A program made the translations under genes and the position numbers. The notes under the pieces are model-generated. The model was not told where the DNA came from, made no database searches, and worked only from the letters and a program-made list of their open reading frames with translations. Below are positions 4,661-37,520 of a stretch of DNA of 64,000 nt, piece by piece (within the stretch, counting starts at the first letter, position 1; every line of letters starts with the position of its first letter). The stretch is from contig NC_086381.1 in assembly GCF_036588685.1 (NCBI RefSeq), positions 50,902,001 to 50,966,000 of the forward strand. The letters run 5' to 3'. This DNA is from Mytilus trossulus (lineage: Eukaryota).

Positions 4661-6999
4661 AAAATAATGTATGTAAACCTCCAGATGTATTTTGGTCTGC
4701 TTGTCTTGTTAGGTCTTGCTGATGTTTTCCCCAACTTTACATGCATATACTGAACATGTACTGTAGCTACATGTAGTATCAATATTTATTCATTATTTCT
4801 TTACTTCATTTTTCAGCTTTACTACTACTTATAACATTACAAACGCAACACAAATAGTGGAATGAACCTTAACAGAAACAAAAGATCTGCAAAATGTTTA
4901 AAAGAATATATTATCTTTCAACTTATTGCTTTGAATATTGCTACCTTTGTATCAACAATCTTCCTCCATCAATAAAACTGACTGTCACGAAATATAACAA
5001 TGGTGCTCAAGTTGAAAGTGGCTTTAAACATTAATCAGTCAATCAAATAAAAAAAAAAAAAACCCAGTTCGGCACTTTGGACTGATAACTTTCCGACGTG
5101 AATCCGTAGAACCTTAGTATTCATAAAAAAATCAGTTTAACAATTGTAAGAATTATGATATATATGTCTAAAATAAATGATTTTTTTGTATCAAATTTTA
5201 ATTCTTGATGGGCGGAAAACGTTCCTACATGCTTAGCCTTTTTTCAAAAATAGATACTTCTAATGTAATAAATATAAAAGTTATATCACCTATTTTGACC
5301 TTGTATTTCTTTACTTATTCAGAAACACGGGTCCCTGCCGAAAAAGAAGAACAAAATTTCTAGAAATCCAAATCCTGGTTGTATCTTAAATGTGCATTTC
5401 CAAAATGTATTAACAACTTATTTATAGTATTCAAAAAATGGCTGATTTAAATATGCTAGTATATTTTTTTAAAAGGAAATCAAACATTTGTGTCAAATAC
5501 TAAAAAGGAACAAAAGCAAACATATTTTAACATAGCAAGGGGACATTCAAAACTACAGGTAGATGACAACATCATGGTGGGCAGAAAAAAGACATAAAGA
5601 CAAATGAACAGTTAATAAAACTAACCAAAATACTGCAATAATATTGACTACCTTGAGCGGCTTAATAAGCCTATGTACCCTGTGAACAAAATCTCAAGGC
5701 AGAATTGTTGTATGAGTTCTGCTGCCATGTATGGTTGTAAAATAGCAAAACACATTCGGCGTTTTGCATTTGCGCCGATTTTTTCTACATTTGAGCCGAT
5801 ATTTTTCTATTCTATTCGAAAAGCATCCATAATTGCGTTATACATTGCTTGTGTCTATATCCGGGAGAGATCACAAATTATTTACATATCACTTCATTAT
5901 ACTGTTCATCTTTCGCTGGTAATAAAATGGCGTAAATATGAGGTACGTAGTTTCCATTTTTACATCCGTGTAAAGTATATATAACGGATAAAAGTATGTC
6001 GGACAACACTTCAACGGTCCATCTATAAATATTGCAGACATATCATTGCAAAGACATTTAAGTTGAGGTGTGTAGAAAAAATGAGTTTACCTTTTCGCAA
6101 TCGTTTGCACTGACCTTCCAATGTGTATGGCCAGTATTTAGCTCACCCATATTAAACTGTAAATGCAATTAGGAGCAAATATAAAATCGGCGCAAATGAA
6201 ATAATGAAATCCGCGCAAATTTAGAATTTTTTTTTTATAAATTTTGCGCAAATATCATACGCCCAACACAATGTGTCTACAATTTTATTTAGGTCAGCAA
6301 ATTTTGATGCAAGAATCAAACTTACTAAAGGAAACTTCCAATTAAAAGTGAACAGATCTATGTGATATTTTATTATTGTCACTCATCTTTTTACCAAAGC
6401 AGAAAATGTTTTTTCGATTCAAATTGTTTTGAACTTTAAAGAACTCGGACAAGTAAAATTCATAAAGGAATCTTCAGAATATTGATTTATTTTATGCTAT
6501 AGCAGGAAAAAAACATACAGTGACTTCTCATTTTTCTTTTGATATTCCGGAAGCATTTTATAAGTGCTATCATCACATATTTTATTTCAAAATTCAATCA
6601 TCTGTTTTACCTTCTATTAACATTATCTTGTCTTTTCTCTGATTAATCCGTGTAAAGTGTGTTATTTTGTCACAAATTTAGCTGGAAAACTAGCGTTGTG
6701 GCCTATCATCTTTATTACATTTTCAAATCTTTAAAAATATATATTTCATTTTGACAAATTTGTGAAAAAAGTCTATCATTTTGTGTACTGGTTATTAGGA
6801 CATCCCAGTATAACAAAATTGCTTTTCGGGCTTGACAGGATATATGGGCTCATATTCCCTGTGACGATTCCTAATTAACATATACTATTTTAATTTTCGA
6901 AAAATATTGATTGAACATGAGTTTTCTGAAACCGTTGTTAATAATCACATGATAAATTCAAAACATATCGTGAGGAAAATTACATTTCTTAAAATTGAA

Positions 7000-7222
7000 A
7001 AAAATCCCCTTTTGCTTTTTTCATCAATTTTTTTTTTCAACTAAAGAAAAGCACTTTGTATTTTCTGACTATAATTTGCTTTATCCAAGTGGCCATCATA
7101 GTCAATGCGTCTTCCTGGTCAGAAGATCTACTCATCCAGGAAGTTTCAAGACTATAAATGACTGGACCACCATTATAGACTAACACTATTAGTGGATTGT
7201 AATTTGAGGAGTAATTAAACAA
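7000..7222 (+). promoter_or_regulatory. Promoter and non-coding exon 1 of precursor copy 1 (kB-like site, Ets-like site, TATA)
   Basis: AAAAATCCCC at 7000-7009 (GGGGATTTTT on -), CAGGAAGT at 7137-7144, TATAAA at 7153-7158 and donor AA|gtaagt at 7222/7223. The same order of motifs occurs at copies 2 and 3. Confidence 0.65.
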
Positions 7223-8191
7223 GTAAGTATTTGTTTTTGTTTTTCTTTCTGTGATTTAAATCTACCAACCAGTAATATAATAAAATATAAAAGTTCTTGA
7301 TAAATGTTGTTGCCTTGCTAAATACACTGACGCTAAAATCCATAGTTTGTTAAAGAAACGTTTTCGTAAAAGAGATTGCATCAACTTTTAATTCAATATT
7401 CTATTTAAGTCTCGTCTCTCAATAACAAATAATGCAAAATATCATTGATAAAATTCAGAATGAAAACAAAGATATATAAAGACTTCAACCGACTCAATAA
7501 AAAAATGATTCACATTTAATTAATTGGGATTATCTAGGAATTTGTATACTTTTTCAATACTGATATGCAATACAACGGATAACTTATGGATACAAAATTT
7601 CATTAGAACACAAAAATATCGCACAAAAACATACAATTCGCTTTAATAAATGGAAAATGATATCAAAACATTAGGAAACATGATTATAAGCGTCAAATAC
7701 ATAAAGGAAAAAGATAAATCACAAAAAAATGAACTCCGGGGAAAATTCTAAATGGAAAGTACTTAATCAAATGGCAAAATCAAAAGATAAAACACATCAA
7801 ACGAATGAATAACAACTGTCATATTCCTGACTTGGTACTGGCATTGTCTTATGTTGAAAATAGTGGATTATTTTCTTATGTTGAAAATGGTGGATTGAAC
7901 TTGGTTTTATACACATCTTGTTTTTAAAAATGAAAAAAAAACGACCAGATTAAAGAGGGTGGAAAAAATGAATTCTTTATTTGCAAGAAGCATATACATG
8001 CTATGGCAAAAGAACAATATATACAATACATGACAAATAAACGACAGCCGAGAACAGTAGTTACAGAGTATATGATTATTATATTGTATTAAGTCAATAT
8101 ATTACGTGATCTTATTTTCCAAACTGCAATTAAATAATTGCTTAGTTTGTTACTGTAGATTTTTTTAAAAATTACATTTATACACCTATAG

Positions 8192-10402
8192 ATGATGTTG
8201 AACCTGATCCGTACCATTGCCGTTTGTTTGATGATGCTTCACGTTAGCGAAGGATGTTTTAGACATGACATTAATGATCGACAATCAGTCCGTGGCACAC
8301 TGGAACCTCTCGGTGGAAGCAATTATAAAGTTGGTTTGGGATGGAATATGGATTTCAAACGACATGCACAGGTAAGATTAAGGGAAGATATTTACCCCCG
8401 CCCCCTGAACAATAAACAGCAAGCCTTGCTGTAAATCGCCAAGAGTCTGTATAAATTACGAATAGACTTATTTAAAAGAGCTTACGAACAATCTGTCAAT
8501 TTGACAACTACTAGATCTTAACTCGGAATACCCCAACAATTAACATTACTTTGTTATCGTACCGGTCGCAATTTTGGCGTTTGCTTTATTTTCGCATGTT
8601 TAATTTTGACATTTTCATTTGGGGCACCAATTGCAAATGAACCAAACTAAAACTACAATAAAAAAAAACCAATTTACGGTAACTGCATGCAAGTTATATT
8701 TGCATGAACAGAATGTACTCACAGAACACACAACAAATACACAAACGAAACCAATCAGGCTTCATATAATTAAACGAAAAGCATACATAACTCCCTAATA
8801 TAACACCTTTCACCCTTAAACCGACATATTTATGTCAATATAAGACCTTCAACAGTTATCAAGCGTGCGTGATGATCTGGTATGAACACTTGTTAATTTA
8901 TTTAAGTTATAATGTATGGTCCTCAAATTTTTTAATTGTGATTCCTCTTTGAACACAGTCTCATGTTTATGACTTTGTTACCATTTTTATGTTGTTAAAA
9001 AGAGTGTGAAAGAGTATACCTTTTAATCTTTTCCGGTAATATTTCTGAAGTTATATGTTATTATGTATTTTTGAATTCGCCTTTAAAACATTGTCCCTAT
9101 TGGATAATGGATTGGGATACCAGCCGATGAAATATAATTAAAAAATAAAATTTTGAAAAATCTAGAAGTAAGAAAAAAACTGTTAACACAAAATGGCTTT
9201 GAAATTATATAGTAGTACGCAAATCATTCCTCTCTATTTATTTTAATTTCTTTACGTGCTTTTTAGAAAAAAAACAAATTAACTATCAAAATATGTAAAA
9301 TATTACAAATCTTTCAATTAATTTAGGACCACCAGATGTTCCATGTAGATATAGATTATAAAGGTATTTCTGGACGCGACAGTCCACTTGACCCATGTGT
9401 ATTCAATCCGTATGACTTGGATGTCAAAGGTTATATTACGAAAGGGGATTTGGATAAGATATTCGTTTATTTCGGTGATGAAGTCAACACACCTGAAATT
9501 CTTCACACATTTTTTGCAGAACTGGACATAGATGAAGGTTTGTTATAGGGTTGTCTTTCGGTTTTAATTATCTACGAACTTCAAACAGAGGTAAAATTGT
9601 CCTACTCTTCGCTATGTTGAGTAATCCAGGATTAGCATAGCAAAATCACCGCTGCTTCGGAGTTTTAATCATTTCAAGGGGTTCATACAAACGTGACTGT
9701 GTATTTAAACATTAAGCACAGACAAAAAGCCGATACCTTAATTAGGTTTTGATTGAAGAAGTTCAAGTATCAATATTTCTGAATTCCTGTCAACCCTGGA
9801 TGTTTTTTACTTTTTGACAGATAATCGGAATCCTCTAGTTAAATCCATATGAATAAATGTCAATATAAATTTCGCCCGCTAACCTACCGTTTTCTTTTTA
9901 ATTATATTATACATAAAGTTTAAAAAGCAATTTTACAAATCTTACAAAATCCTTGTTATTTTCCCTAAATTTCGAGAGAAAAATGTGCCAGTGTTATGTA
10001 AATGAAAATTCTAGAGAGAATCATTTCCCGCCAAATTTTCAATTGATTTTATCTTAAAACCAAGGACACTTTCATGTTTTTTTGCTGTCAATTTGATGTT
10101 GTCTTTAAAAGTCAAAGCTTGTTATTTTGAAACAGTGGAGCGAACAGTATTTAGGCGTAAGGCGTTTTTGTCAGTATTGGTCATAAAGTTTTATTGGAAA
10201 AGAACGTAAAAAATCACTATTTTTATCTTAAACAATTTTCTCTTGAACTGATGATATTTTTTTGTACATACTTGTAGACAAAATGGTGACAAAAGAGGAA
10301 TTCGACCTTAAAAAGAAAGATGTCATAACCGAAGAAAGCTGCAGTATAATAAAGGACAAAGATGCAATGGCTGCTGAACAGAACATGACATTGTTGAAAT
10401 GA
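8192..10402 (+). CDS. Secreted peptide precursor, copy 1 (signal peptide - ~34-aa peptide - KR - two EF-hand pro-domain), 171 aa, 3 coding exons
   Basis: Exons 8192-8371 (tatag|ATG ... CAG|gtaaga, phase 0), 9327-9537 (tttag|GAC ... GAAG|gtttgt, phase 1) and 10278-10402 (tgtag|AC ... TGA) join in frame: MMLNLIRTIAVCLMMLHVSEG-CFRHDINDRQSVRGTLEPLGGSNYKVGLGWNMDF-KR-HAQDHQMFHVDIDY...PCVFNPYDLDVKGYITKGDL...LDIDEDKMVTKEEF...ESCSII...LLK*. Hydrophobic N-terminus, dibasic site and two EF-loop motifs; supported by two paralogs in the window. Confidence 0.88.
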
Positions 10403-16400: not shown

Positions 16401-17430
16401 TAGAAAAAATGAGTATACCTTTACGCGATCGTTTCCCTTGACCTTAAGATGTGTATGGCCAGTATTTAGCTCACCTATATTAACTGTAAATGCAATTAGG
16501 AGCAATTATAAAATCGGCGCAAATGAAAAAATAAAATCAGCGCAAAAAAAAAAAAAATCTTAATTCGGCGCAAATGTCATACGCTCAACACAATATGTCT
16601 ACAATTTCATTTAGGTCAGCAAATTTCGATGAAAGAATCAAACTTTCTAAAGGAAACTTTCAATTAAAAGTGAACAGATCTATGTGATATTTTATTATTG
16701 TCACTCATCTTTTTACCAAAGCAGAAAATGTTTTTTCGATTTAAATTGTTTTGAACTTCAGGGAACTCGGAAAAGTAAAATTCATAAAGGAATCTTCAGA
16801 ATATTGATTTATTTTATGCTATAGCAGGGAAACAAACGTACAGTGACTTCTCATTTTTCTTTTGATATTCCGAAAGCATTTTATTAGAGCTATCATCTCA
16901 TATTTTATTTCAAAATTCAATCATTTATTTTATCTTCTATTTACATTATCATGTCTTTTCTCTGATTAATCCGTGTTAAGTGCGTTATTTTTTTTTCACA
17001 AATTTAGCTGGAAAACAAGCTCAGTTACCTATCATCTTTATTATATTTTTTTAAATCTTTAAAAATATATATATCATTTTGGCAAATTTGTGAAAAAAAT
17101 TGATCATTTTGTGTACTGGTGATTAGGACACCCCAGTATAACAAAATTGCTATTCGGGCTTGACAGGATATATGGGCTCATATTCCCTGTGACGATTCCT
17201 AATTAACATATACTATTTTAATTTTCGGAAAATACTGATCGAACGTGAGTTTTCTGAAACCGTTGTTAATAATCACATGATAAATTCAAAACATATCGTG
17301 AGGAAAATTAATTTCGTTTTTGATGCGTTTTGTTTTTTGATTTTGCCATGTGATTATGGACTTTCCTAATTGATTTTCCTCTGAGTTCAGTATTTTTGTG
17401 ATTTTACTTTTTACATTTTTTAAAATTGAA

Positions 17431-17654
17431 AAAAATCCCCTTTTGCTTTTTTCATCATGTTTGTTTTTTAACTTAAGAAAGGCACGTTGTATTTTCCTGA
17501 CTATAAGTTGCTTTATTCAAGTGGCCATCATAGTCAATGCGTCTTCCTGGTCAAAAGATCTACTCATCCAGGAAGTTTCAATACTATAAAGGACAGGGCC
17601 ACCAGTATAAACTCACACTATTAGTGGATTGTAATTTGAAGAGAAATTAAAAAA
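17431..17654 (+). promoter_or_regulatory. Promoter and non-coding exon 1 of precursor copy 2
   Basis: AAAAATCCCC at 17431-17440, CAGGAAGT at about 17569, TATAAA at 17585-17590 and donor gtaagt at 17655. Confidence 0.65.
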
Positions 17655-18595
17655 GTAAGTATTTGTTTTTCTTTTTCTTTCTGTGATTTAAATCTACCAA
17701 TCAGTAATATAATAAAATAAAAAAGAAGTTTTAAAGTTCTTGATAAATGTTGTTGCCTTGCTAAATACACTGACGCTAAAAATCCATAGTTTGTTAAAGA
17801 AACGTTTTCGCATAAGAGATTGCATCAACTTTTAATTCAATATTCTATTTAAGTCTCGTCTCTCAATAACATATAATACAAAATTACATTAATAAAATTC
17901 AGAATGAAAATAAAGATATATAAAGACTTCAACCGACTCAATAAAAAAAAATGATTCACATTTAATTAATTGGGATTATCTCGGAAATTGTATACTTTTT
18001 CAATACTGATATGCAGTACAACGGGTAATTTATGGATACAAAATTTCATCAGAACACAAAAATATCGCACATAACATACAATTCGCCTTTATTAGATGGA
18101 AAATGATATCAAAACATAAGGAAATATAACTATAAGCGTCAAATACATAAAGGAAAAATAAAAATCACAAAAAAATGAACTCCGCAGGAAAAATTCAAAA
18201 TGGAAAGTACTTAATCAAATGGCAAAATCAAAAGATAAAACACATCAAACGAATGGATAACAACTGTCATATTCCTGACTTGGTACTGGCATTTTCATAT
18301 ATTGAAAATGGTGGATTGAACTTGGTTTTATACACATCTTTTTTTTTTAAATGTAAAAAAAAAAACCCAGATAAAAGTGGGTGGATTGAATGAATTCTTT
18401 ATTTGCAGGAAGCATATACATGCTATGGCAAACGAAAAAATATATACAATACATGACAAACAAACGACAGTAGTTACAGAGTATATAGTAATATTAAGAC
18501 AATATATTACGTGATCTTATTTTCCAAACTGCAATTAAATAATTGCTTAGTTTGTTACTGTAGATTTTTTTTAAATTACATTTATACACCTATAG

Positions 18596-20992
18596 ATGAT
18601 GTTGAACCTGATCCGTACCATTGCCGTTTGTTTGATGATGCTTCACGTTAGCGAAGGATGTTTTAGACATGACATTAATGATCGAAAATCAGTCCGTGGC
18701 ACACTAGAACCTCTCGGTGGAAGCAATTATAAAGTTGGTTTGGGATGGAATATGGATTTCAAACGACATGCACATGTAAGATTAAGGGAAGATATTTACC
18801 CCGCCCCCTGAACAATAAACAGCAAGCCTTGCTGTAAATCGCCAAGAGTCTGTATAAATTATGAATAGACTTATTTAAAAGAGCTTACGAACAATCTGTC
18901 AATTTGACAACTACTAGATCTTAACTCGGAATACCCCAACAATCAACATTACTTTATTATCGTACTGGTCGCAATTTTGGCGTTTGCTTTATTTTCGCAT
19001 GTTTAATTTTGACATTTTCATTGGGGGCACCAATTGCAAATGAACCAAACTAAAACTACAATAAAAAAACCCCAATTTACGGTAACTGCATGCAAGTTAT
19101 ATTTTCATGAACAGAATGTACTCACAGAACACACAACACACTGCAAATACACAAACGAAACCAAACAGGCTTCATAAAATTAAACGAAAAGCATACATAA
19201 CTCCCTAATATAACACCTTTCACCCTTAAAACGCCATATTTAAGTCAACAGAAGACCTTCAACAGTTATCAAGCGTGCGTGATGATCTGGTATGAACACT
19301 TGTTAATTTATTTTAGTAATAATGTATTGTCCTCAAAATTTTTAATAGTGATTCCTCTTTGAACACAGTCTAGTTGTTATCTTCCTCATGTTGATGACTT
19401 TGTTACCATTTTCCTGTTGTTAAAAAGAGTGTGAAAGAGTATACCTTTTCATCTTTTCCGGTAATATTTCAGAAGTTATATATATGTTATTATGTCTTTT
19501 TGAAATCGCCTTTAAAATATTGTCCCTATTGGTTAGTGGATTGGGATACCGGCCGATGAAATATTATAAAAACATAAAATTTTGAAAAATCTAGAAGTAA
19601 GAAAAAAAACTGTTAACACAAAATGGCTTTGAAATTATATAGTAGTACGCACATTATTCCTCTCTATTTATTTTAATTTCTTTACGTGCTTTTTAGAAAT
19701 AAACAAATTAACTATCAAAATATGTAAAATATTACAAATCTTTCAATTAATTTAGGACCACCAGATGTTCAATGTAGATATAGATTATAAAGGTATTTCT
19801 GGACGCGACACGCCACTTGACCCATGTGTATTCAATCCGTATGACTTGGATGTCAAAGGTTATATTACGAAAGGGGACTTGGAGAAGATATTCGTTTATT
19901 TCGGTGATGAAGTCAACACACCTGAAATTCTTCACACATTTTTTACAGAACTGGACATAGATGAAGGTTTGTTATAGGGTTGTCTTTCGGTTGTTGAGCA
20001 ATCGGATAATTATTTACGAACTTCAAAAAAAAAGTAAAATCACAAAAATACTGAACTTAGAAAAAAATCAATTCGGAAAGTCCATAACCACACGGCAAAA
20101 TCAAATAACAAAACCAGCGGTTAAATTGTCCTCCTCTTCGCTATATTGAGTAATTCAAGATTAGCATAGCAATATCACCGTTGCTTCGGAGTTTTAATCA
20201 TTCCAAGGTGTTCATACAAGCTAAAGGCTTTTCAAACCCTGAACATGCATCGAGTCCGAATTCTGACCAAACGTTACTATGTATTTAAACATTAAGCACA
20301 GACAAAAATGCCGATACCTTAATTAGGTTTTGATTGAATAAGTTCAAGAATAAATATTTCTGAATTCCTGTCAACTCTGGATGTTTTTTGTTTTTTGACA
20401 GATAATCGGAATCCTCTAGTTTAATCCATATAAATAAATGTCAATACAAATTCCGCCCGCTAACCTACTTTTCTTTTTAATTATATTATACATATAGTTT
20501 AAAAAGCATTTTTTTCAAAATTTTATAAAATTCTTGTTATTTTTCGTAATTGTTGAAAAAAAAATGTGCCAATGTTAAATATATGAAAAATCTAGAGAAA
20601 ATCATTCCCCAACAAATTTCCCGCCAAATTTTCAATTGATTTTATCTCAAAACCAAATACACTGATCTTTCATGTTTTTTTTGCTCTCAATTTGATATAG
20701 TCTTTTAAATTCAAAGATTGTTATTTTGAAACTGGAAATATCTTTCGTAAGTAATTTTGTCCGTATTGGTCATAACATTTTATTCGAAAAGAGCATAAAA
20801 AATCACTATTTTTGTTCTAAAAACAATTTTTCCTTAAACTTTTGTTAATTTTTGTACATACTTGTAGACAAAATGGTAACACAAGAGGAATTCGACCTGA
20901 AGAAGAAAGATGTCATCACCAAAGAAAGCTGCAGTATAATAAAGGACAAAGATGCAATGGTTGCTGAACAGAACATGACATTGTTGAAATGA
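18596..20992 (+). CDS. Secreted peptide precursor, copy 2 (tandem duplicate of copy 1), 171 aa
   Basis: Exons 18596-18775, 19756-19966 and 20868-20992 have the same lengths, phases and GT-AG sites as copy 1. ORF intact; 9 amino-acid differences from copy 1. Confidence 0.88.
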
Positions 20993-22913: not shown

Positions 22914-25900
22914 TTAATCATAAAGTGCATACACTTTGACCTCAGCCACATGTAAGAATTCTGTTCCTCGTATTGTCAATTTCACATAACGTGCCTTTTC
23001 TTCATACTGACATCCAAACACAAGATGTTCTCCGAGTTCAGCCGGTCCTGTGTAGTGGGTACATAGATGCAGGTTATTTAGTGAAGTACCAGCCATAATG
23101 TCAAGGTCATGCAGACGTCGTCCTGAAACAAAATAAAAGTTAATCTATTTTCCTGTTCGTAGATTGCAGTTTATTTATGTGTTCAGTTTTCGTATAAGCT
23201 ACAAGTACTCGGTCATTTGTAGTATTTGTATTTTTATCCATCTGATGAGTTAAGCCTTTTTTGAACTGATTTTTATAGTTTGTTCTCATGTTGTACTGTG
23301 ACACTACTGTACCAGGTTAGGTTAGGGTTTGGATCCCGCTAAAATGTTTAACCTCGTCTCATTCTCTATGTATGTGCCTTTCCCAAGTCAGGAGCCTGTA
23401 CTTCATGGGTTGTCGTTTGTGTTTAAGTTACGTATTTGTTCATAAATGGGGCCGTTAGATTTCTCGTTTAAATTGTTTCAATTGTCATTTCGGGGCTTTT
23501 TATAGCTGACTATACGGTATTGGCTGTGGTCATTGTTGAAGGCCTTACGGTGACCTATAGTTTTTAATTTCTGTTTTATTTTGGTCTCTTGTTGAGAGTT
23601 GACTCATTGGTATCCATACCACATCTTCTTTTTTCCTATTCCTTGTTTTTCATGTTAATGCATTGCCGTGTGCATTCAATTACTGATTTGAATTCTCCTC
23701 CTAATCTTGAATACGTTAGAGTAAACTATTTCGAAATGAGACTTATATAGCTAGAATGCTTTCGAACAATTCTCTGTAACCACCAACTAATTACTAAGTT
23801 GGGTCGGCACGCATAATCACCGATTTTCAAGAAACTAAGCCAACACATGTAATCATGTTAAAAAGTAAGAAAAATGCCGACAAAATTGTTTATAGGTAAC
23901 GGTTGCCGATTAAATTAGTTTTCCCGTACATTTTGAGGAATTTAGCTTCGAAAAAACAACTACTTTCAGTCATTTAAAATCAAAAGCAGGTCTAATTTAA
24001 TATATTTTCAAAAACATTAAACTTTAACAATCAAAACAGCATTCATTTCTAATAAATTTAGCTGAATATGGTCACACCCACAGAAGCAGAGGTCATTTTT
24101 CATTGTATTTGAGTAGACATATTCACCTACATTTAATTAAGCTGTGTTTATGAATAAAAAGTATCAATCTTTATAGTAAGAAAATTATAACAAAATATTT
24201 GGGATATTAGGTCTTAGGATGGTTGCGAGTGAAACAAAAATGCGTTTTTACCTGATGAAATTTCACCATGTTATTAAGATAATCCACATAAAGTAATAAC
24301 TATTGAATGACTATGATGTGCCAACCAACATGACCGCCACGGCTAAACATAGGGGTAAAATGCAGTTTTTGGTTAACTTTTCTGAAAGTGAAGCATTTAG
24401 AGAAAATCTGACTCTGGCTTAAAAAGGTTTAGCAGGTTGGGATCTATCTACACTTAAATTTTCAGTTGAATCAGATAACCCTTTGCTGGGATGCTGCCTC
24501 AGAACTAGTAATATAAAGGTAATTTTGGAATATTTGAATATTATTATAGATAAAGATGAACTGTAAACAGCAATGAGTTTCAGCAAAGTAATATCTATAA
24601 ATAAGTGAATAGGACCAAAATTGTTAATTGACCCCTTTAGGAGTTATTGGCCTTTAAAGGAAATGTTTAACAATTTTTCGGAAATTTTGGTTATCTGTTA
24701 AAGCAAATCTTCTCTCCTGAAACTACTGAGACAAATTTATCCAGACATGGCCACAACAATCATTAGGGTATTTAGATTAACAAATGTGTCGGATGATCTT
24801 GCCTGCCAACCAACATGTCTAACATGGCCAGAAACATATACACTAAAAAGGTCAAGGTCATGCAAAATAAAAAACGATCTGCATAACATTCAGAGAATTC
24901 TTTTTTGTTTAGAACGTAAAAAGCATGCCAAAAAATTAACAACTCAAATTACGGAAATTTACCATAAAATATAGGTAATCGACCTTAGACGTAAACTAAG
25001 CATAGATACCAGTTTTAACATTTTGTAAGCTAATCGTGCGTTTCTTCCACAAAATACTGACCAATGACGCTCGAATAAAAACATCAAATAGATGACCTAA
25101 TACGAAAAGTAAAATCACAAAAATACTGAACTCCGAGGAAAATGCAAACGGAAAGTCCCTAATCAAATGGCAAATTCAAATGAAAAAAATCCACATCAAT
25201 CGAATGGACAAAAACTGTCATATTCCTAACTAAGTTAAAAACCATTGAGTATATAACATTCCGAAAGATTTTGTCAAATAGACCGTGGTTGGTCTTCAGC
25301 CTTTTCGGGTTGTTGGCGACTGCGTTTTTGCGTTTTTGCGTTTTCGATTTTGTTATTTGACCAGGTTCTTATTAACATAAACATGTTCTATTTGTTGCAA
25401 GTTTGCCTATGTATTAGGAAAGTATAATACATATATATATTTCCTTAAACTTTCTTCCATAATTGTTCAATAATGAAATAATATAAGAAAGAACTAACGG
25501 AAACTTCTAAAATGTCGTTATAGGTTCAATCTTGAAACAAATACATGTTATAAAATAATCATGTGGATATGACAATACTGCAACAATTCCTATATTCTTA
25601 TTACGTTCTTCCTATAGAACAAGAAACGCAAATACGCGAAGAAGTGAAATCACGAAAAGGCGAAATCGTGAAAAGGGGAATAGCCAAAATCACGAAAACA
25701 CGAAAGGGCGAAAACACAAAATCGGAGAGAAAAATATTTCGAGTTTTAGCGATATAGGATATGAAGGGTGAAAATGTGAAAAAAAAGAAATGGCCATTAC
25801 CGGCCACCAAAGACATATGACCGATGTATGCCATCATGTTATTAGCTCTACCCACCTGTGTCTCTAGAGCCACGATTTCTGTTGAATATTTCGATCCGCT

Positions 25901-28900
25901 TTACTTGGAAAAATTTTCCAAGGTCAACAAACCAGTATGGTAAATGATTTTTGTCAGTGTGCGCATATGTATTCAAATCTCCATCAACAGCCTTCGAAGC
26001 ATATTCTACCCCAGCGGTTGAACTTTGTTTGCATGACTTTCCGTAGGCAACTTCCGTCAATGGGCTTTCTTTTATGTTGGAAATAAAGAAAAGGATAAAA
26101 AAGATAAAAACCTTTATCAAATTAAAAGTGGTAACAAAATATTACCTTCTGCTTAAAGATAAGATATATGAAAAAAGTAATCTTTATACACATATTTCAC
26201 TGGGTGTGTCCACATGAAATGACAAATTTATCATGAAAAAAAAGAGAACTAATTTTATTTTCAGTTGAAATGTGGGTTTGAATTTTAATGATCATCATAT
26301 AATATAATTAGGCAAACAGTACGCAAACGATTAATAATTTGAAAAACATTTTACAAAATTTTACCCTCCATCCCTTTGAGGTGTAAATCTACTTAATCAT
26401 ACTACGTCACATCCGGTCAAAAAAAATTCTAAGAGGTGTAGGAAATTAATTTTTCCTTTCATTGAAATAACTAATATCTGATTAATAAAACATATATCTT
26501 TGGTGTTTAAATCACCATTTTTTTATTTGGCGTTTCTTGGCAGAACACTCATTGAGAGCTTCAATGGTACAATGGAATCCGTATATAATTAAACTTTACT
26601 CATGCCAAGTATTTATTTATTTGAAAGAAAAGAAAATTCTACACAACTGTTTGAAAAGTGCAAATGTAACAAAGAAAAGTTATTCCTTTGAAATAGTACT
26701 TTGAAATGGTGGGCTTGACTTTCAGTCTTTTTGTTAATACACAAAATAGATCCAGGATGGCGTTTACAAAATAGACGATAATAGCAAAGAAAGATAATGA
26801 TTAGAGAAAAAAAGAACGAAGGACCTCTGATCCATACCTTCATAAAACATTTGTTATATACTTACGCTGGCTCTTTTCAATAGTCTGTACATATACAGGG
26901 ATGCAGGTGTAAGTTAGTGACAGCGGGAAACACACTTCATTAGGCTTACATCCATGACCTTTACATGGACCAGCCAATTCCTAAAATCATCAACAAACAC
27001 GACTTTGATATTTCACATAGGTGTGTACAAAAGAAATTAATGGGCTAAACATTCAGGAAAAAACGAATAAAAGGATATAAAAAATTAGACCAAAATTAAC
27101 AGAAAAGAAATTTATAATGGAAAAAAAGAAAGATAGATTAAAATTTCATAAGATATTTTCTTAAATAATGAAATGAATTACCTCTATTCAGACCCTTTAA
27201 ATTCTACTTCTTTTCCTAAGACTTTCGATATTATCATCTCTAGTGATTACGATTGCTCATATTTTTCTGAGTGATGGCAAAAATTATGTAACTTCAATTT
27301 TCTTTTCATAGAACATAAGTTGTTTTTAAATCAAAAATATTTGAAAAGAAGAGAAAATTGAGGTCATCATGTAATCTATAATTTAATAGAAATCTGAAGT
27401 TTCGAATATATGATCATATATTTAGGTACTTCTGTTCTGTAACTTCTTACTACCACATGTACTAATGAGAAGCTCATCCAAATAATTACTCTATTTTTCC
27501 TCAATGCATAAAGTTTATATGCTTATGAATACTTATATATTATTGACTTTCGATTTTTTTTCGAGTTTTGATCGTTAAATAAAAAATCCTTTGAACGCAG
27601 CAAACTCATAAAGTGTTATTTTTTTAATCACAGTTATTATACTGTATGTGGTTATTCGAATTCGTCTAAACAAACAGTTAGGTGTGTTTAGCATTTAAAA
27701 CGACTTTAGATGATAGCACACAAAAGATTCAACAACAAATATTGTGAAAAAAAATAGTACCGTTAATGCTCTTACTCTCACTGGGTCGATACCTCTGCAG
27801 TTGGCCTGTTGGTCCCGAGGGTATCGTTAGTCAAGTGGCATTAAATAAATAGGCATTACGCACCATGTTGTTAACGTATTCTGATTTCATAAAAAATCGG
27901 CTTTTGAAGGTTTTAATAAGAAAAATACAGGAAATTGTACCTGAAGTGTTTTTTTTTTTAAAATCTAAAAACAACGAAGAAAATGATGGCTTATTGATTT
28001 TTATTGATTTTATAAAGTTTTTTCAATCAGTTTTAGCAATACCAAAAAATCTAATATTTTTTGTGTATACGGTTAACATACAAACATACCAGTTCTTCGA
28101 GTATTCCCTTTATTTTCGGATACTTACAAGGACATTACACATGACAACACTATATCATTAGAGAAAGAAACCCAATGTGACCAAATGTTCCAGCTGGACC
28201 GTTTTCAGAGGTTACATCGCCCGCCATTTTTTCGTTGGGCGCCCTGTGCCCTTTGAAAGTTTCAGTTACACCCTTTGCCTTTGTTAAGGAGCCTTGCGTT
28301 TTTAAAGATCGACTGTATTTTATTTTGTTCGTTTTAAATGATCCGCCATTACGAGATTTTACATAGCGACAAGTTTATGACTCTGTTAACGACCACATGC
28401 TAATCAATTGTTACACCAGGTGTCAAAATTTGTTGTTTCAGATAATCCGTTGATCGGATTGGTCATTATTGATCATCTATGTCTACATACGGTTGGCTTT
28501 ATAATTTATAATTTTAGTTTTTTTGAGTTGTGGGGAAAGTTGTAGAGGGTATACGTACACGAAGCAGGATGGATACTTGGTCATCTGTTTCTGCACTCGT
28601 AATTTTTACTTCAAATCCACTGTTCACTTAATTCTAACATTGTGCATTTATTGAGCACAGCAGAGGTAGAAAGGATTTTTTCACAAGTAAAAGCACCCTT
28701 CGAAACATACTGCATATAAAGCTCTATTCTGATAAGCAAGAAAACTTGTGTGAGAAGGTGCTAGATAAGTTTTTCATTATAAAAAAGATTGAGTTTGATT
28801 TTTTTTTTGTGAATTTTTTATTCAGTAATTAGGTTTTTACAATCCCTGTACATCCCCGCCGGACTATGGTGTTAAGGGTTTTGATATATGAATAAAAAAA

Positions 28901-31771
28901 TAAATAATTTACTACATGTTTTTTTCTACTGTGAATATATATTATATGCAAATGTTATCTGTGTAAAGATCTGCTCATAATAAATATACTGTAAGTGTCA
29001 TTTTTTTATGATTTGAATCAAAAGTAACTGCTACTATTCAGTATAAATGTAATATACTGGGGCCCAGAATTTAAAACAAAAGGTGTGGTTCTATTTTTCT
29101 TTGCTTTATAATGTTCATTGTCCTAATATTTTCTGATTTTTGCTAGATACCCTGTTATACTTGGTTTCTTTTTATACAGTTTACATTTGTATATATAGTT
29201 CTTTGCAATGGTAATCGTCAAATTCAACAGTAAACTCTCGTTATGAAGGCCAAGTAAAATGGTTTTTTTTTAAGATAATCTAAACATGGTAAAGTTCACA
29301 AAATATTGTTTCAATTTTTGTGAAAAAGATTGCCATATAAAATGTGTTATAGGACATTCATAGACTAAATGCTCAATGGTTTCATAAGAAACCTTACAAA
29401 AAGTACAAAGCTTTGAATCTTTAAGTTTAACATTATACAAAAAAGTATGAGTTGTTGCAATTATTTTGTGTAAAAATGTGTATTAACAAGTTCTATAATA
29501 AGCACCTTTACAGGATTTTCTTTAAATAAATTAACATTCTGACCAATCTTGATTTCAAAACCTAGTGAGTTCTGCCATTGTAAGAACTTTTCTTTTGGCA
29601 GTTGCACATTTTTGTCAACAAGATCTTTGTACACACACTTTACCTTTTTGTTAAACAATAATCTTTCAAAAAATTATCAATATAGTTAAAAGGTTAACAA
29701 TTCACATGAGTAATGTTTTCGTTAATATGTTCCCTCATTTACTTTGGAATGTTTTCAATGAGAACTTAATACTTTATTTTCGAGTTTTATGTGGGCTTAT
29801 CATTTTGTACTTGTATATATATATAAGTAAACAGTGATTTAATGAATGAAGATAGAATTTGATTGATATCTTATTTAAAACATGCCCTTTTCATATTAAT
29901 ATCATATTATGCGTTCAATGCCATAATTCAGAAATCCTAACTGGAACACAGGATGTGTGTAAGAAGTGAATAACTCTTTTTTCGGACCGGGTGTGCCTTG
30001 CAAGATGTCATTATTGATTTTCAACACCAAAGTTATATCACACCCTTACGACAACAGTTCATAATGCACTTATATCAAGAACACTATGTTTTCAAATTAA
30101 TGAAAACGCATTTCCTTTTGTTAAACAAGTCTGGAAACCTGAAGTAAACTAGCGATTCCCACGAAAGCCTCGAAATCATTACCAAACACCTATCCCAAAG
30201 TACATTACCACAACAACTTTACAAAACATCTTCTGAAATGTGACATGCGTCCTTATATATAATTTGTACGGCATTCATTGGAATAGCAATCTCATTTATA
30301 ACATTAAAAAAAATAAACTAAGTGTACGAATGATCTTCAAAGGTTTCCAATCATAAAACTTAAAACAAACATTTTATAATAAAAATTCCGAAGTTGGTAA
30401 TAAAATACAATGAGCAGTGACGTGTAATGCATATTTGAACGCAGAAATGAACGCAGTATGATTGATTCCAAATTGCAAAAGAATATTTTATGTTTTCAAT
30501 TATGTTTTATCGAATATCGATGGGCGTTGAAAGAAAGTTTTCCATAATGTCACAATTTTAATTTTAATCTGAATTTGTCAGAACCATGTTGTTACAGATC
30601 ATCAAAAAGAATATAAACAACATCATTTGTTCGAGAAAAAAAATACCAACTGTTGGTTCATAACTATTCATTGGATACCAATTTTCGTGGGTTTCGTTGG
30701 TACAGTTGAACAACGAATTCAAATGTTTAACGAATTACAAATTTTCTTTAGGCTTTGTAAGCAGAGATTGGCAAATCCACGAAAATTAATACACACAAAA
30801 ATAAATGAATCCACAGTATAACTTCAAATTCCTAAGCAAAACGAACATTTCGATATATATGAAATGAAGAGTAATGAACACATTATCAAAATAAAACGGT
30901 CACATGGTGGTTCACCACTATAATGTCACACTATCGTTAAAATATGATGTTTTTGACGTTCTCTCTTTAGGTAATGTATGTTTGCGTTTTGGTGTTTAGA
31001 AACGTACCTATTTTATGAAACGATTACCTAAAATATGAATCTTCACTACTTTGTTTACTTCACTTTGTTGAAATGCATTCCTCGTTTCAATTTAACATTG
31101 TTTTTTGGGAATGAATCCTGATTTTGAGAACATTTCAATTTGACAGCAACTATACAACAACCAAAAAATCATACTATTTACACAGATCGTGCGATTACAA
31201 ATGTTGAAATTCAAATACAACTTGCATCGACCATGTATAACAATCGTATCAATTAGAATGCTGATCAATTTTGACTTCTAATAAATTGACCCAAACTGCA
31301 AAAATACAAATTGGAAGATTTCTCATATTTGCGATTATAGCTACAGTTAAATTAGGCGTTGCCTAGGCCATTACAGACTTCCTCGACCAGTATTACAAAC
31401 CTTGGACATATAACAGGGTCATCATAAAAATGACCCTTCATTAATATTATAATGTAACTTACCTTAGGGAATGCTGAGGCTCCTAGAAAGCTATTTCCAG
31501 TGCTTTTGATGAGCTTACCATGGTAATTCGTTTCCCCTGGTTCATCATCAAATATCTGACAAGACTTATTCACTGTGATAAAGTTTATAGATTTACATAA
31601 TTGTACTCTGGAGCAAAACTGGGCACACACTGACCACATTGGCAACGTCTGTTCAAACAGGATATGTCCTGTATATATTTTGTCTTTTTGTTTTTTGATG
31701 ACGACTATTTCACACAAAGTCCAGACAAAAAGAAAAACCAATAATAAAATCAACATGATCAAGCGATACAT
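22914..31771 (-). CDS. Secreted PAN/apple domain + short Cys-rich (EGF-like) module + F-type lectin (fucolectin/FTP) domain protein, ~281 aa, 4 exons
   Basis: Exons 31771-31463 (signal peptide, CAQFC..VQLCKSINF..SCQI PAN pattern), 26980-26866 (ELAGPCKGHGCKPNEVC..YTCIP), 26068-25856 (VAYGKSCKQSS..AVDGD..YAHT..PYWFVDLG..IEIFNR) and 23122-22914 (RRLHD..LCTHYTG..ARYVKL..LHVAEVKVY*). Phases 0/1/1 are compatible. The exon-3 acceptor is purine-rich (aaaag) and less certain. Confidence 0.8.
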
Positions 31772-34700
31772 TTTTGTAAACAGTTCCTGTGTGATGTTTT
31801 CAGTGCTGTTCTGAAAACATTTTCCAGATCCTTTCGTAAGGACTTAAATCTTTTTTCGGTTGTCACGGGAGATTCTTTTTTAAATAAAAATAATTTAATT
31901 TGAATCCCTTTTAAACACTTAACAACAAATGGAGTGCAGTCTTAATTGCTCATTAGGCGCTGAACAGATGATTTTTCCTACATTGAAACATATACTCAGT
32001 ATCATCTACGATTTAAATGCAAAAGTAAGTTGTAAAATGATATGCAATTTCAAAATTATCGTTTTCAAAATTTCAATCTATAGAATAGCTAATGGAATAT
32101 TTCCATGAGAATATTCACAGTTCTATGCAAGCAAATGACTAATCAAACCAGAAAATATACTTATTGACCGGCTATGATGACAGAGCAAGTTTATTGGCTC
32201 TTGAAGCGCCAACAATTTACCAACTCGAGGCGGAGGGACATAATAAGTTGCCGTCAATTTGCAAGTTGGACAGTAAATTTGCTGATGTCCTAATAACCTG
32301 TATATAAGTGTTTTATTGTACAGAAAAACTAGTAGATAAATTCGGTATGGACGTCATAATCATTTTAATGCTCATATAGCACAGTAGCAGTATCAGACTC
32401 CATACAGTATTATCGTTCGGATTATACTTCATTTTCTCTGCATAAAGTACAGAAAAATATCCCGTTAAACCACTATTTTTTGTTAGGAATTGGCTTCTTT
32501 ACAAACATTCAAACTGAACTAACACAATACATGTATGTAACTGACAGAATTTCCCTACTGTTGATAGTAAACAAAGACAATCATAGTCTCTGATCACATC
32601 GGCAAACTTTACATAGTATAAATTCATATGCGCAAAAACTTCTAACTTGAGAATAATTTCAGATAAAGTTTCAGTTAAATATTGCATAAAAGGATCAAAT
32701 AAATAATAAAAATTAAATATCGGACAATAACAAATGAATAATATCCGACAACACCAGCTATCATCGCCGACTTCTCATAGAAAAAAGGAAAAACAAACTT
32801 GCATAAGGAAATAATGGACCCACAATTTGAAAAACAAGGTTGACATGTTCTCGCTTCTTAATTAGAAACTGAGTGTAGAAAGCGGCTGGTTAAAAAAACG
32901 CGTAAGAAGAAATATATAACAAACATCAATTCTTATTATTAATTTTAAATCACTCTTATCTTAAAATGTTATTGAAATCAGCAGCATTAGAGAGAGGTTA
33001 ATAGGTAAGTAAGCTTTCACAATATCGAAAGGAAAAATATCTTCATTTCAAATAAATCAGCTGGTGAACATCTTCCTGTGAGATCTTCCTGAATTAAATA
33101 ATATAACTTTGAATGCTATGTTCTGTTTATGAGATTGTGATATACGGTAGGTCATCTACACAACTACTTTTCCACCTGTCTATTTTCATTACTACACATT
33201 TACAATACTAAACATGTACTAAAAAGTGTAGTGTAGTACCAAGTCAGGAATATGGCCATTGTTTTTTTTATAGTTCGTTTCTATGTGTGTTACATTTTAA
33301 CGTTATGTCGTTTGTTTTCTCTTATTTTTGAGTGTGTGTTCACATTACCTTCAGAAGTGTCACGGTTCTTGTCTATCCCAAATTCATGTGTTCGGTTTTG
33401 ATGTTATGTTTGTTGTTTTCGTGGGATTTTGTCTGGTGCTTGGTCCGTTTCTGTGTGTGTTGCATTTTGATGTTGTGTCGTTGTTCTCCTCTTGTATGTA
33501 ATGCGTTTCTCTCGGTTTTTGTTTGTTACCCGATTTTGTTTTTTGTTCATGGATTTATGAGTTTAGATTGCGGTCTTCTACTGTTGCCTTCATTGACGCA
33601 GCAATTTCAAATTTGTCAACCTTAACAATACTCGATGTTTTCTTCCCATTTCATGTACAGGTTTTGTACTATTAACGAAGGTTCCAAAAGTGTATAGTAC
33701 TTTTTTTTTATTACAATTTGATATGAAATTTTATTAAAATGTTAAATTTTAAAAGAACTGTTCTGGTACAAAATTGTGAATACCAAAAATGTACTACAAT
33801 GTATAGCACATACATATTTAAAGTATAAAACTGATTTGTATAGCATTGCTATTTGATTAATTGTCTAAATTGTATAACACTTTTTTCACGCGTAGAAAAC
33901 CATGTTAGTGGATTCCTTACTTCTTATTGCTTAATGATCTTGAGGGATCAGCACAAGTTAACGTGCCATGTGTGCCCTTCCTTTTATCATTAACTTTCGT
34001 CTTGATAACTTGTGATTCTAAAACATTGCGTGAAATTTAAATTTCCCAACCGCAAACCTCCCTTTATTTTATCTTTACAAGTAGTTTTGTAAATAGATTT
34101 TTTTTAGTTGTGCAGATTTTTTCTCCCCACCTTTGCTATTATTTGTCATTTATTCAATTGATATCATTTTAGTTGATGTAATTTCGTATTAATTATGTAT
34201 TATGATTGCATATTAATCATTAACTTTTATGTCAAATGTTTTATTTGCAAATTGTATTTTTTTTGCATTTTATGATTTTGAAATAATGACCTTTTTTCTT
34301 CAATCTTGATTTTATAGATATAGCAAAACAAGCTCAATGTCTGGCTGACATATTTATATGTCCATAGGTTTATAGTTTCTGTCTGTCTGTCTTAAATTGT
34401 GTCACTGAAATTTGTTAATAATTTCGATGTACCATAAAAGTACCACATTAATTTTGTACTTTAAATTTATAGTACTAAAACATTAAAGTATGCTTTACCA
34501 AATCGTACAATTTGTGAAATGTACTCGCAATAGGATGCATAAAGACAAACTTTGCAACCTCCTTCAATCAAACAGGAAAGTTTGTTATGGCAATGTTGAA
34601 ATTATCTCTAAAGACATTTTGGAATGATTGTTTTCCATTTTGTACCGATACAGTAAAGTGTAAAAAAAGAAACCAGTATAAACAAGTATTATTTACTTTA

Positions 34701-37009
34701 TTAAGCTATAGTTGTATAAGTTAAATACATTCCGCATTTGATAAACTCAGAAATATCAACAGTAAGTTAATACTTAAACTCCAGCAATAATTGTAACACA
34801 TGTCCAATCATATTTTTTCAATTTTCAATTTTTTTATTTTTTTCCATAGAAAAAAATGCATAACTTACAGTAAAGAAAAAAGTTGAGCGCAGTTACAATG
34901 GTTTTGCAATCAGATAGTTCGACCATTTTGCATTACCTCAACAAACAAAAATATTGTCATTAACTTTAATTGCAACAATAGAATTTGAGATCTACTTGAT
35001 TAAAATACCACTCACATGATTTAATTAATCTTTTTTTTTTATCAGATAATGTTAAACAGTACTGTATAATGTAGACACATTATAAATGTCCACTGATATT
35101 AATGGATGAGTTTTTCTAAGACTCACAAGAGATGTTCATATAAAAAATACTCCATATCTGTGTTTTATAGAATATATTATAATTTTGAATAATGATATGT
35201 TTACGGAAGAAGTAGCTATGGTAATAAGTACGAATGTCTAAAAGGAGTTTATTTGACAGAAGATAATTGTGGGATTCATAAATAATAATTTAGCTTAGAT
35301 GACCAATACAAATCAGATCACAAGGATAATGGCTCCACGCTTTAATGTATTAGTTTTAGGTTACTTGGTTTTATTTTATGTATGATTTATAAATAGTTCT
35401 CGACAAAAGCTTAAAAAGGAAAATTACACCCTGTAGGTTGCACTTTGTAAATACAGCTGTTTCTGAAAACACGCCTCTTTTAGGGAGAAATTGAATATTC
35501 ATAGAAAATTAATTTTGTTTACATACTGGTTCCTAGATATATAAAATGTATGCTCTCTGTGTTCCATATCGTAGAGACAGAACTTGGGAATTTTACCAGT
35601 AAATACACATGTGCATATTGTTAAAATTGAAATCTGTGGTAACTTTTCATTCGAGGTAGGGGTAGTTAAGAAAATTAGTGTTAGTTTAAACTCTGAGAAG
35701 TTCAGGGCATAGGTGATTAGAAACTAAACAAAATGATAGAATTGTTAAATACTTCAGGAAAAGATAGCTTTCAGAAACTGCTTTGAGAATATCAAAAGAA
35801 AAGAAAGGGTCACCGTACGTTTTTCCAACTAAAATACAAAATAGGAAAATTCCTTGTAGAACCCTTCAGAAAATGCACTGTTTTAGAGCTACCTCTCCTT
35901 AAAATGCCAGTTTTCAAAATAAAGAAAAACAACCAAAAATTGTTAACATTTGCAAAAATATTAATATTTATTAGTTATAGTCTTATAAATTGGTTCTTAT
36001 AAATGAAAATTCACATTAAATATCTGCATTCCTGCATCAAATTTTGCTAACTTGATAGAAAATCTGGACCTTTGGTTCTCTGTTTTTTTACAATCCAAGA
36101 TGGAGGAAGACACCCATACCACCTTAAAGGATGACTGTAATATATTTTTCTGTCTATGAAGAAATAACATTTTAAATGTTAAGCACGCTGAATAACGCGT
36201 GTAGCTGGTTATTTTCAAGTGAGCACGGCATGTTTCATGTTATTTCGAATGGAAAGATAAAATATTAAAGTCATTCCTTATAATTTAATTCTAAATTCCA
36301 TTTTCAGCTGCAGAACATCACGAAAAAAAGTTGATGACGTCACGGTTTCATGTCAAAATTACGTGTATGAGTTGATAGACAAAACAACGTCAGTCAATCA
36401 GAAAACGCGTAACATCCAAATGAATTATTTAGCCAGAATAATCATAAGGTGCATACACTTTGACCTCAGCCACATGTAAGGTATTTGTTCCTCGTAGCAT
36501 CAATTTCACATAACGTGCCTTTTCGTCATATTGACATATAAGCACAAGATGTTCTCCGAGTTGAGCCGGTCCTGTGTAGTGGATACATAGATGCATGTTA
36601 TTTAATGAAGTACCAACAATAATGTCAAAGTCACGCAGACGTCGTCCTGAAACAAATTATAATTAAAAGTTATTATTTTCCCTATCATTAGATTGCAGTT
36701 TATTTAGGTGTGCTTTTTTTGTATAGACTTTTTCTTGTTTGTCATGTTAATGCATTGCCTTTTGTTCTAGTTTAACACTGACGGATGGATTGACATCTCC
36801 TCCTTATTTTGAATACACAAAGTACGTTAATAGTATCTTTTTCGAAATTTGACTTATTTAGCTCTAATGCTTAACATCTGTATCAATTTCAGCGGATTCT
36901 GTTTCTAAGAACGTAAAAGGCATGCCAAAAAAATACCTAATCAAATATCTGAAATATGTCATAAAAAATAGATAATATAAAAGTATTATACCAGGTTAAA
37001 TTCGATATC

Positions 37010-37520
37010 AAAAGTACCATGATTATAATTCAGTACGCCAGACGCGCGTTTCGTCTACATAAATCTCATCAGTGACGCTCATGTCAGAATATTTATAAAG
37101 CCAAACAAGTACAAAGTTGAAGAGCATTGAGGATCCAAAATTCCAAAAAGTTGTGCCAAATATGGCTCCGGTTATTTGTGCCTGTAATAAAAAAATCATT
37201 AGTTTTTTGAAATATTCAAAAGTTTTGTAAACATGAAATTTATAAAAATGACCACATTATTGATATTCATGTCAACACCGAAGTGTTGACTACTGGGCTG
37301 GGGATACCCTCGGGGACGAAACGTCCACCAGCAGTGGCATCAGTTTTTTTCTACTAAAAGATAGATATCAGTTTTTTTTCTACTAAAAGATAGATATCAG
37401 TTTTGACATTTTGTACGTCAGATGCGCGTTTCTTTTACAAAATACTGATCAGTGATGCTCGAAAAAAACCTTAAACAGACCACCTAAAGTTCGAAGTTGA
37501 AGATCATTGATAACATAACA
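37010..37520 (-). mobile_element. Hammerhead-containing repeat (retrozyme-like), one full unit plus a degenerate second hammerhead
   Basis: 37035-37080 reverse complement is gagcgtcaCTGATGAgatttatgtagacGAAAcgcgcGTCtggcgt; a degenerate copy lies at ~37415-37460. Further decayed copies at ~25030, ~41705, ~51775 and ~55000. Confidence 0.65.

Follow-up and report, generated by a model that had tools for sequence, protein, structure and literature searches.

Does a bivalve secrete peptides that imitate the C-terminal beta-signal of bacterial outer-membrane proteins (OMPs)? This question was raised by the original prediction for a peptide encoded at 8255-8362 of a 64,000-nucleotide stretch of Mytilus trossulus DNA, referred to here as the window. 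Comparison of sequences points to a family of peptides that measurably resemble the ends of OMPs, and for which antimicrobial and BamA-directed roles are putative.

Three expressed precursor genes in the window

Positions 8255-8362 fall within the second exon of a four-exon gene on the forward strand (copy 1), whose product is identical letter for letter to P0003, an uncharacterised M. trossulus protein. The non-coding first exon (7086-7222, start approximate) is covered by an RNA contig piece and followed by a GT..AG intron reaching to 8192, where the second exon opens with a predicted signal peptide of 21 residues (8192-8254) that has a visible hydrophobic core in translation and would be cleaved after S-E-G. 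Directly downstream lie the predicted mature peptide of 34 residues (8255-8356), with Cys first, Phe last and the same letters as in P0003, and a KR dibasic site (8357-8362) at which cleavage is expected, this allele having no Arg at P4. As read from its sequence, the peptide has two alternating strands flanking a G/N-rich loop. Exon 3 (9327-9537), placed by RNA joints, encodes a pro-domain strand, a P-C motif and an EF-hand (Pfam EF-hand_7, E 0.0013), and the last coding exon (10278-10402), placed by tblastn of P0003, a joint in run X4 and splice sites, encodes the end of the second EF-hand, the last Cys and the stop; the EF-hand pair scores below the Pfam cut-off. The joints 7222/8192, 8371/9327 and 9537/10278 match splice signals and each was found in 1-4 RNA runs, the contigs coming from four runs of four studies; joint 8371/9327 occurs in contigs of 4 runs, one of which carries an extra base.

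Copies 1 and 2 are a tandem duplication, with 91% identity between 6980-9597 and 17411-20040. In copy 2, also on the forward strand, one exon (18596-18775) holds the signal, the peptide (18659-18760), which differs from that of copy 1 at 1 of 34 residues, and KR, and it is followed by an EF-hand exon (19756-19966) and a last coding exon (20868-20992), both located by P0003 tblastn-based comparison and splice reading. Copy 3 lies on the reverse strand, where a single exon (49557-49953), unbroken in RNA contigs, comprises the signal, a 33-residue peptide (49890-49792), an R-F-K-R site and the EF-hand region; its last coding exon (46071-46201) is reached by joint 49557/46201, found in all 4 RNA runs compared. 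The intron after KR is thus present in copies 1-2 and absent in copy 3. Copies 1-3 are expressed Mytilus genes encoding secreted precursors composed of signal, peptide, KR and EF-hand pro-domain, and a search of the same genome at first-look sensitivity found no further copies of the window type.

Both 24-residue stretches on which the original prediction was built were recovered at their positions and align without gaps, and its coordinates for the peptide with KR of copy 1 and for the peptide of copy 3 are correct. The near-neutral charge it described was reproduced as well, with a net charge (K+R-D-E) of 0, +1 and +1 in copies 1-3, and one Cys is found in each window peptide. Its statement that no amidation Gly is present holds for the window, where no Gly precedes KR in any of the three copies, and fails for the family at large, several relatives carrying an amidation Gly.

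Some minor features of the window were also observed. At 49786-49750 (reverse strand), where copies 1-2 have their intron, copy 3 has a 21-base GT..AG stretch. RNA contigs and orthologues continue across it in frame, and it may be an intron that has collapsed. A 28-base tandem repeat (42 copies, 92% matches) occupies 50258-51448, about 300 bases upstream of the copy 3 coding exon. Between copies 2 and 3, at 22932-42495 on the reverse strand, a multi-exon gene is present twice; it carries a PAN domain as well as an exon rich in Cys. In the M. edulis model P0007 a gene of this PAN type is joined to a copy-3-type precursor, probably by annotation error.

A variable peptide on a conserved pro-domain

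Relatives were gathered by homology searches, a profile search of 1.84 billion representatives and cluster look-ups, and the family so obtained comprises two Mytilus clades, oyster members (P0028 and P0116 of Ostrea edulis; P0102, P0118 and P0122 of Crassostrea gigas) and the longer member P0077. All members share the precursor layout; Gly is invariant in their first strand, and their pro-domain is conserved. The oyster-type precursors P0037 and P0122 have 87 of 92 pro-domain residues in common (counted by eye), yet their mature peptides can barely be aligned. Judging from these alignments, the mature region is hypervariable and the pro-domain conserved, most markedly in oysters.

All 13 Mytilus precursors scored end in Phe, and a terminal aromatic residue stands at the predicted cleavage end in 19 of 25 precursors from Mytilus, oysters and other relatives, the remaining six having none; these counts leave out P0006 (annotated with the greater part of the peptide missing), P0008 (copy 1, its intron read through), the near-duplicates P0019, P0021, P0025, P0107 and P0115 and the EF-only fragments P0124-P0128. 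Many Mytilus members end R-F, with Arg at -2 in 11 of 13 sequences. The furin consensus is R-X-K-R, and since this Arg would also complete such a site, the column is explicable without mimicry.

The hairpin envisaged in the original prediction did not emerge from modelling. Single-chain folds reached a pLDDT of 44.5 (6 sequences) and 59.9 (23 sequences), with only the EF-hand part confident; the peptide region remained below 50 in both, and we therefore claim no hairpin from them. Foldseek with the fold returned EF-hand proteins only, none at E 0.001, and an Atlas search returned EF-hand clusters only (best score 0.78). The pro-domain itself opens with another alternating strand (9336-9400 and the equivalent in all members), modelled as a hairpin at a pLDDT of about 60-66, which could cap the free edge of the peptide before cleavage.

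A genome search with P0077 located pro-domain exons of a related kind in four further places, matching the family profile with a probability of 96% (E 1e-9, in an alignment that includes P0077, the sequence used for finding it). Upstream of three of the four lies an exon for a signal and a Gly-rich peptide of 81-82 residues, with 16-17 Gly and no Cys, ending G-F-K-W-K-F followed by G-K-R. The long peptide gave 12 matches, which lie in G000:C9:77.87-78.22 Mb and in C19:3.36-3.39 Mb, the stretches of this second cluster being L076-L078 and L083-L094; C19 may represent another haplotype of the C9 stretch, the peptides of L083 and L084 being identical. By eye, this second cluster contains a six-strand form with a net charge of +7 to +12 and a four-strand form of 56 residues with -2 to +1, the lengths ranging overall from 56 to 83 residues, and frameshifted copies are present. 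When the frameshifted L087-L089 and the duplicate L084 are left out, Phe is last in 5 of 6 intact peptides, L091 having Gln after Phe, and this terminal Phe is reached in three ways: a bare basic site, Gly plus a basic site, or a stop codon. In fact, TAA and TGA stand directly after Phe in the four-strand genes at L090:1498-1500 and L092:1498-1500 (-), with the KR codons persisting behind them; the stops reflect one event or two, and these genes may be dead. A first-look search found no EF-hand exon for them. As two paralogues end at Phe by a stop codon, the peptide can therefore exist without the EF-hand.

Profile-profile comparison gave no support for shared descent of the peptide parts of the second cluster and the window type (probability 1.2%); the cluster is joined to the family by layout, ending and pro-domain. 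According to the available part of PMC12294457 (2025), bivalves have no known antimicrobial peptide of the glycine-rich kind, and among those of Mytilus only the myticalins are linear. The second cluster would thus provide the first candidate Gly-rich antimicrobial peptides in a bivalve, filling the gap stated there even without any action on the BAM complex. A further pro-domain exon of the same type (G000:C2:44836960-44837121, L079), for which no upstream peptide exon was found within 9.9 kb, may be part of a different family, for instance that of mytimycin.

Precursors of this kind need not be immune. They could be neuroendocrine or matrix precursors, or uncleaved calcium-binding secreted proteins, whose strands serve receptor binding or self-assembly and whose likeness to OMPs is coincidental, which we consider unlikely. 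The R-F endings of many Mytilus members, the missing P4 Arg of window copies 1-2, the similar opening strand of the pro-domain, which might be the partner of the peptide if the protein stays intact, and a snail gene joining neuropeptides to an EF-hand (cited in the available part of PMC8398477) are all in keeping with such a role. Against it, an amidation Gly follows R-F in 0 of 13 Mytilus sequences, and copies 1-2 end D-F, so that the RFamide pattern is missing. Hypervariability, tandem expansion and broken copies also set these genes apart from neuropeptides, which are typically conserved, as do the two paralogues that stop at Phe, unless they are dead genes.

A full-text literature search, covering few subscription papers, returned no description of the family or of an animal beta-signal mimic, and six oyster gene or protein identifiers were absent from the papers it reached; the six mussel peptide families named in the available part of PMC7653742 do not include the present one. 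The bivalve peptide family is real, expressed and apparently undescribed. An origin from bacteria by gene transfer was considered and not supported: phage searches gave no matches, plasmid searches gave 5 weak unrelated matches only, 0 of 105 pattern matches in GTDB genomes were confirmed, the long peptides had no match in the PDB, and NCBIfam gave none either.

Likeness to outer-membrane-protein C-termini

For comparison with OMP ends, 937 ORFs were called in 61 stretches of E. coli K-12 chosen around OMP genes; 76 of these ORFs have Phe or Trp as their last residue, and Pfam identified 39 OMPs in this set, while two ambiguous ORFs, one TonB-like without a Pfam match and BcsC, were excluded. 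When the final 11 residues of 8 mussel peptides were made into a profile, OMPs took ranks 1-15 of the 937. With Phe excluded (positions -11 to -2), the profile told 33 OMPs apart from 24 further proteins ending in Phe at an AUC of 0.86, a value equalled by 0.45% of 2000 column shuffles. The terminal Phe and the alternation pointed out by the original prediction are therefore kept above chance in the larger alignment. An HMM built from the 8 peptides matched the E. coli chromosome weakly at 2 places, both internal and not at a C-terminus.

A profile trained on the OMPs themselves (leave-one-out, 39 OMPs) ranked P0005 and P0026 at the 95th percentile of true OMP ends, P0009 at the 85th, P0023 at the 82nd, P0077 at the 74th and P0004 and P0119 at the 54th, and the scores of P0005, P0009, P0023, P0077 and P0119 were exceeded by none of 896 other C-termini. 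The same was true of the second-cluster ends (26th-59th percentile, 0/896), and orthologues ending G-V-G-[LF]-N-Y-R-F fell at the 82nd-95th percentile of E. coli OMP ends. Copy 1 reached the 10th percentile (shuffle p 0.06), copy 3 the 5th, with 15 of 896 other C-termini scoring higher, and seven short-turn oyster peptides the 3rd at most. By these scores, the window alleles are weak mimics of OMP ends and the likeness is stronger in their relatives.

The beta-signal motif G-x-x-hydrophobic-x-aromatic, as defined in the available parts of 10.64898/2026.09.25.754295 and PMC13067283, corresponds to Gly at -6, a hydrophobic residue at -3 and a terminal aromatic. It occurs in copies 1-2, in 10 of 25 precursors (counting His as hydrophobic) and in 3 of 6 second-cluster peptides, and is missing from the copy-3 clade, which has Glu and not Gly at -6; Gly at -6 is itself found in 15 of the 33 Phe-ending E. 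coli OMPs. The original prediction had also matched the last heptad of copy 1 to darobactin through a shared Trp (W3) and Phe (F7). Trp at -5 was found in only 3 of 13 Mytilus sequences and in 0 of 33 E. coli OMP ends, and position -7 is L, V or I, so that a conserved W-x-W core like that of darobactin is lacking and the match is incidental.

Specificity for the last strand was judged by asking whether the C-terminal segment scored best within each OMP, as compared with shuffles that keep the in/out alternation. The copy-1 clade picked that segment in 11 of 39 OMPs (4 of 500 shuffles) and the second cluster in 7 of 39 (24 of 500, marginal). The pooled subfamilies picked it in 7 of 39, without beating the null (55 of 500 shuffles; 24 of 100 in another run), and among 35 proteins that end in Phe or Trp without being OMPs, the pooled profile chose the C-terminus in 5. 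The copy-3 clade picked it in none of the 39. Three unrelated library searches returned a weak gapless match to Pla (269-292, E 1.5), the second of two distinct proteins, a weak match to TamB (324-380 of 381, E 0.061) and a match of 3 of 6 second-cluster peptides to YadA_anchor (PF03895, 13-60 of 60; E 0.0087; best 16.5 bits against a cut-off of 22.7), each lying at the extreme C-terminus of an outer-membrane beta protein and all below curated cut-offs.

In these comparisons the likeness to OMP ends is real and strongest in the copy-1 clade, P0077, P0119 and the second cluster, and it is in part the family-wide likeness of a generic membrane-type strand. The proposed beta-signal likeness thus survives when more sequences are aligned. 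A preference for the last strand is seen in the copy-1 clade and marginally in the second cluster, and is not seen in the copy-3 clade or the pooled family.

Another explanation is that antimicrobial amphipathic hairpins or meanders insert unaided and oligomerise into beta-barrel pores, the OMP likeness following from the general needs of a membrane strand (alternation, Gly, aromatic ends). The failure of the pooled profile against the alternation-preserving null, the high charge of the six-strand members, the existence of amidated and non-aromatic ends and the YadA-anchor likeness, which fits small self-assembling barrels, all agree with pores. We nevertheless regard them as somewhat unlikely, because the window and four-strand peptides are near neutral, the copy-1 clade favours the last OMP strand over internal ones and stop codons stand exactly behind Phe.

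A possible decoy on the BAM machinery

The mytimycin precursor consists of a signal, a mature peptide, a dibasic site and an acidic EF-hand extension, one member being without the extension (available part of PMC8004829). The present family has this same layout and is likened to mytimycin by layout rather than by EF-hand sequence, the mytimycin peptide having about 12 Cys and the family peptides one or none in alternating Gly-rich strands. Because of the shared layout, antimicrobial peptides freed by a convertase are the most likely products, and by this analogy the peptides are probably antimicrobial.

Our leading reading, to which we give a probability of roughly one in three, is that they may act as antibacterial decoys that engage the BAM complex by imitating a beta-signal. 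Following signal cleavage, a convertase cut at KR would free the peptide, and carboxypeptidase trimming, amidation or a stop codon would expose the terminal aromatic residue. The peptides of the window copies would fold as a hairpin and those of the second cluster would have four to six strands, the sticky strands presumably being kept soluble until release by the acidic EF-hand pro-domain. The final strand could then dock on BamA strand 1 or on BamD as an OMP beta-signal does (motif and mechanism in the available part of PMC13067283), and docking would stall outer-membrane protein assembly. In longer members, two to six strands may resemble a nascent OMP and be partly folded by BAM as dead-end substrates. 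The tandem copies, the frameshifted copies and the 12 second-cluster matches are counted in favour of an antimicrobial decoy. Access across the outer membrane is the main weakness of this idea: according to the available part of PMC13067283, the binding of linear peptides to BamA is poorer than that of cross-linked darobactin, and a target in the periplasm can be reached only through the outer membrane. The bivalve peptides have no delivery domain like that of the lectin-like bacteriocins (Llp).

A broader form of the decoy reading, in which two-, four- and six-stranded bivalve peptides copy the C-terminal end of OMPs and kill Gram-negatives as dead-end BAM substrates, would make them an animal counterpart of darobactin and L-type pyocins and possibly explain the OMP shutdown by attacin; we hold it to be doubtful. 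BamA is a leading antibiotic target, and the natural beta-signal mimics described so far, in the sources as available to us, are bacterial. If the decoy reading is true, a gene-encoded animal family may offer a large natural library of unmodified candidates against BamA, and with it one could ask directly if OMP assembly is exploited by animal immunity.

Perhaps, the peptides are antimicrobial and their strand is added to a different target of the envelope, be it LptA/LptD, a porin, the TAM system or one in fungi, with variable ends tracking different targets, although this seems quite unlikely. Thanatin, for example, targets LptA/LptD. This reading would accommodate oyster peptides that vary extremely while their pro-domain stays fixed, the short-turn oyster subtype, which ends F-L-F-K-S/G and not in an aromatic residue, and the antifungal activity of mytimycin with its same layout (PMC8004829, available part). 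Set against this, no likeness to such targets was found and the only recurring likeness is that to OMP C-termini.

Turning to known systems that bear on the decoy reading, attacin, diptericin and hymenoptaecin are Gly-rich, like the bivalve family, and mainly active against Gram-negatives, and attacin inhibits membrane-protein synthesis without entering the cell (available part of PMC7924397). Pfam Attacin_C (PF03769) gave no match at E up to 10 for the window peptides, P0077 or the second cluster, in a HMMER search whose filters drop most matches above E of about 0.1. The strand pattern and aromatic C-terminus of these insect peptides do resemble those of the bivalve peptides, and we know of no insect Gly-rich peptide precursor with an EF-hand pro-domain. 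Magainin-2 is a helical cationic peptide. It was reported to bind the BamA barrel cavity and to impair OMP folding (cited in the available part of PMC11591259), so that an animal peptide acting on BamA has precedent; acting in the cavity, it is not a beta-signal mimic, unlike the role proposed here, and PMC13506288 adds, in its available part, only lowered BamA levels. Myticalins are Cys-poor mussel peptides with tripartite precursors and a hypervariable mature region (available part of PMC12294457); they resemble the bivalve family in being Cys-poor and hypervariable, and differ in being highly cationic, with no defined beta structure, a low-complexity pro-region and no EF-hand.

Darobactin is a beta-signal mimic ending in Phe, as many bivalve peptides do, but it is a cross-linked bacterial heptapeptide whose affinity rests on its cross-links (available part of PMC13067283), and none are implied in the bivalve peptides. 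The Llp (lectin-like bacteriocins or L-type pyocins) have at their C-terminus a hypervariable peptide that is not modified and for which pairing with, and blocking of, BamA strand 1 is proposed (10.64898/2026.09.25.754295, available part). They are bacterial and their lectin domain binds BamA loop 6, whereas the bivalve peptides have no loop-binding domain; moreover, nothing but the hydrophobic dyad is retained in Llp tails (6 of 246 have Gly, and the aromatic is never last in the part available), whereas many bivalve members keep Gly at -6 and the terminal aromatic. The short-turn oyster subtype (P0037, P0102, P0117, P0121 and P0123) ends in F-L-F plus one or two residues, and these ends resemble the capped hydrophobic dyad of Llp tails as described in that same part of the source.
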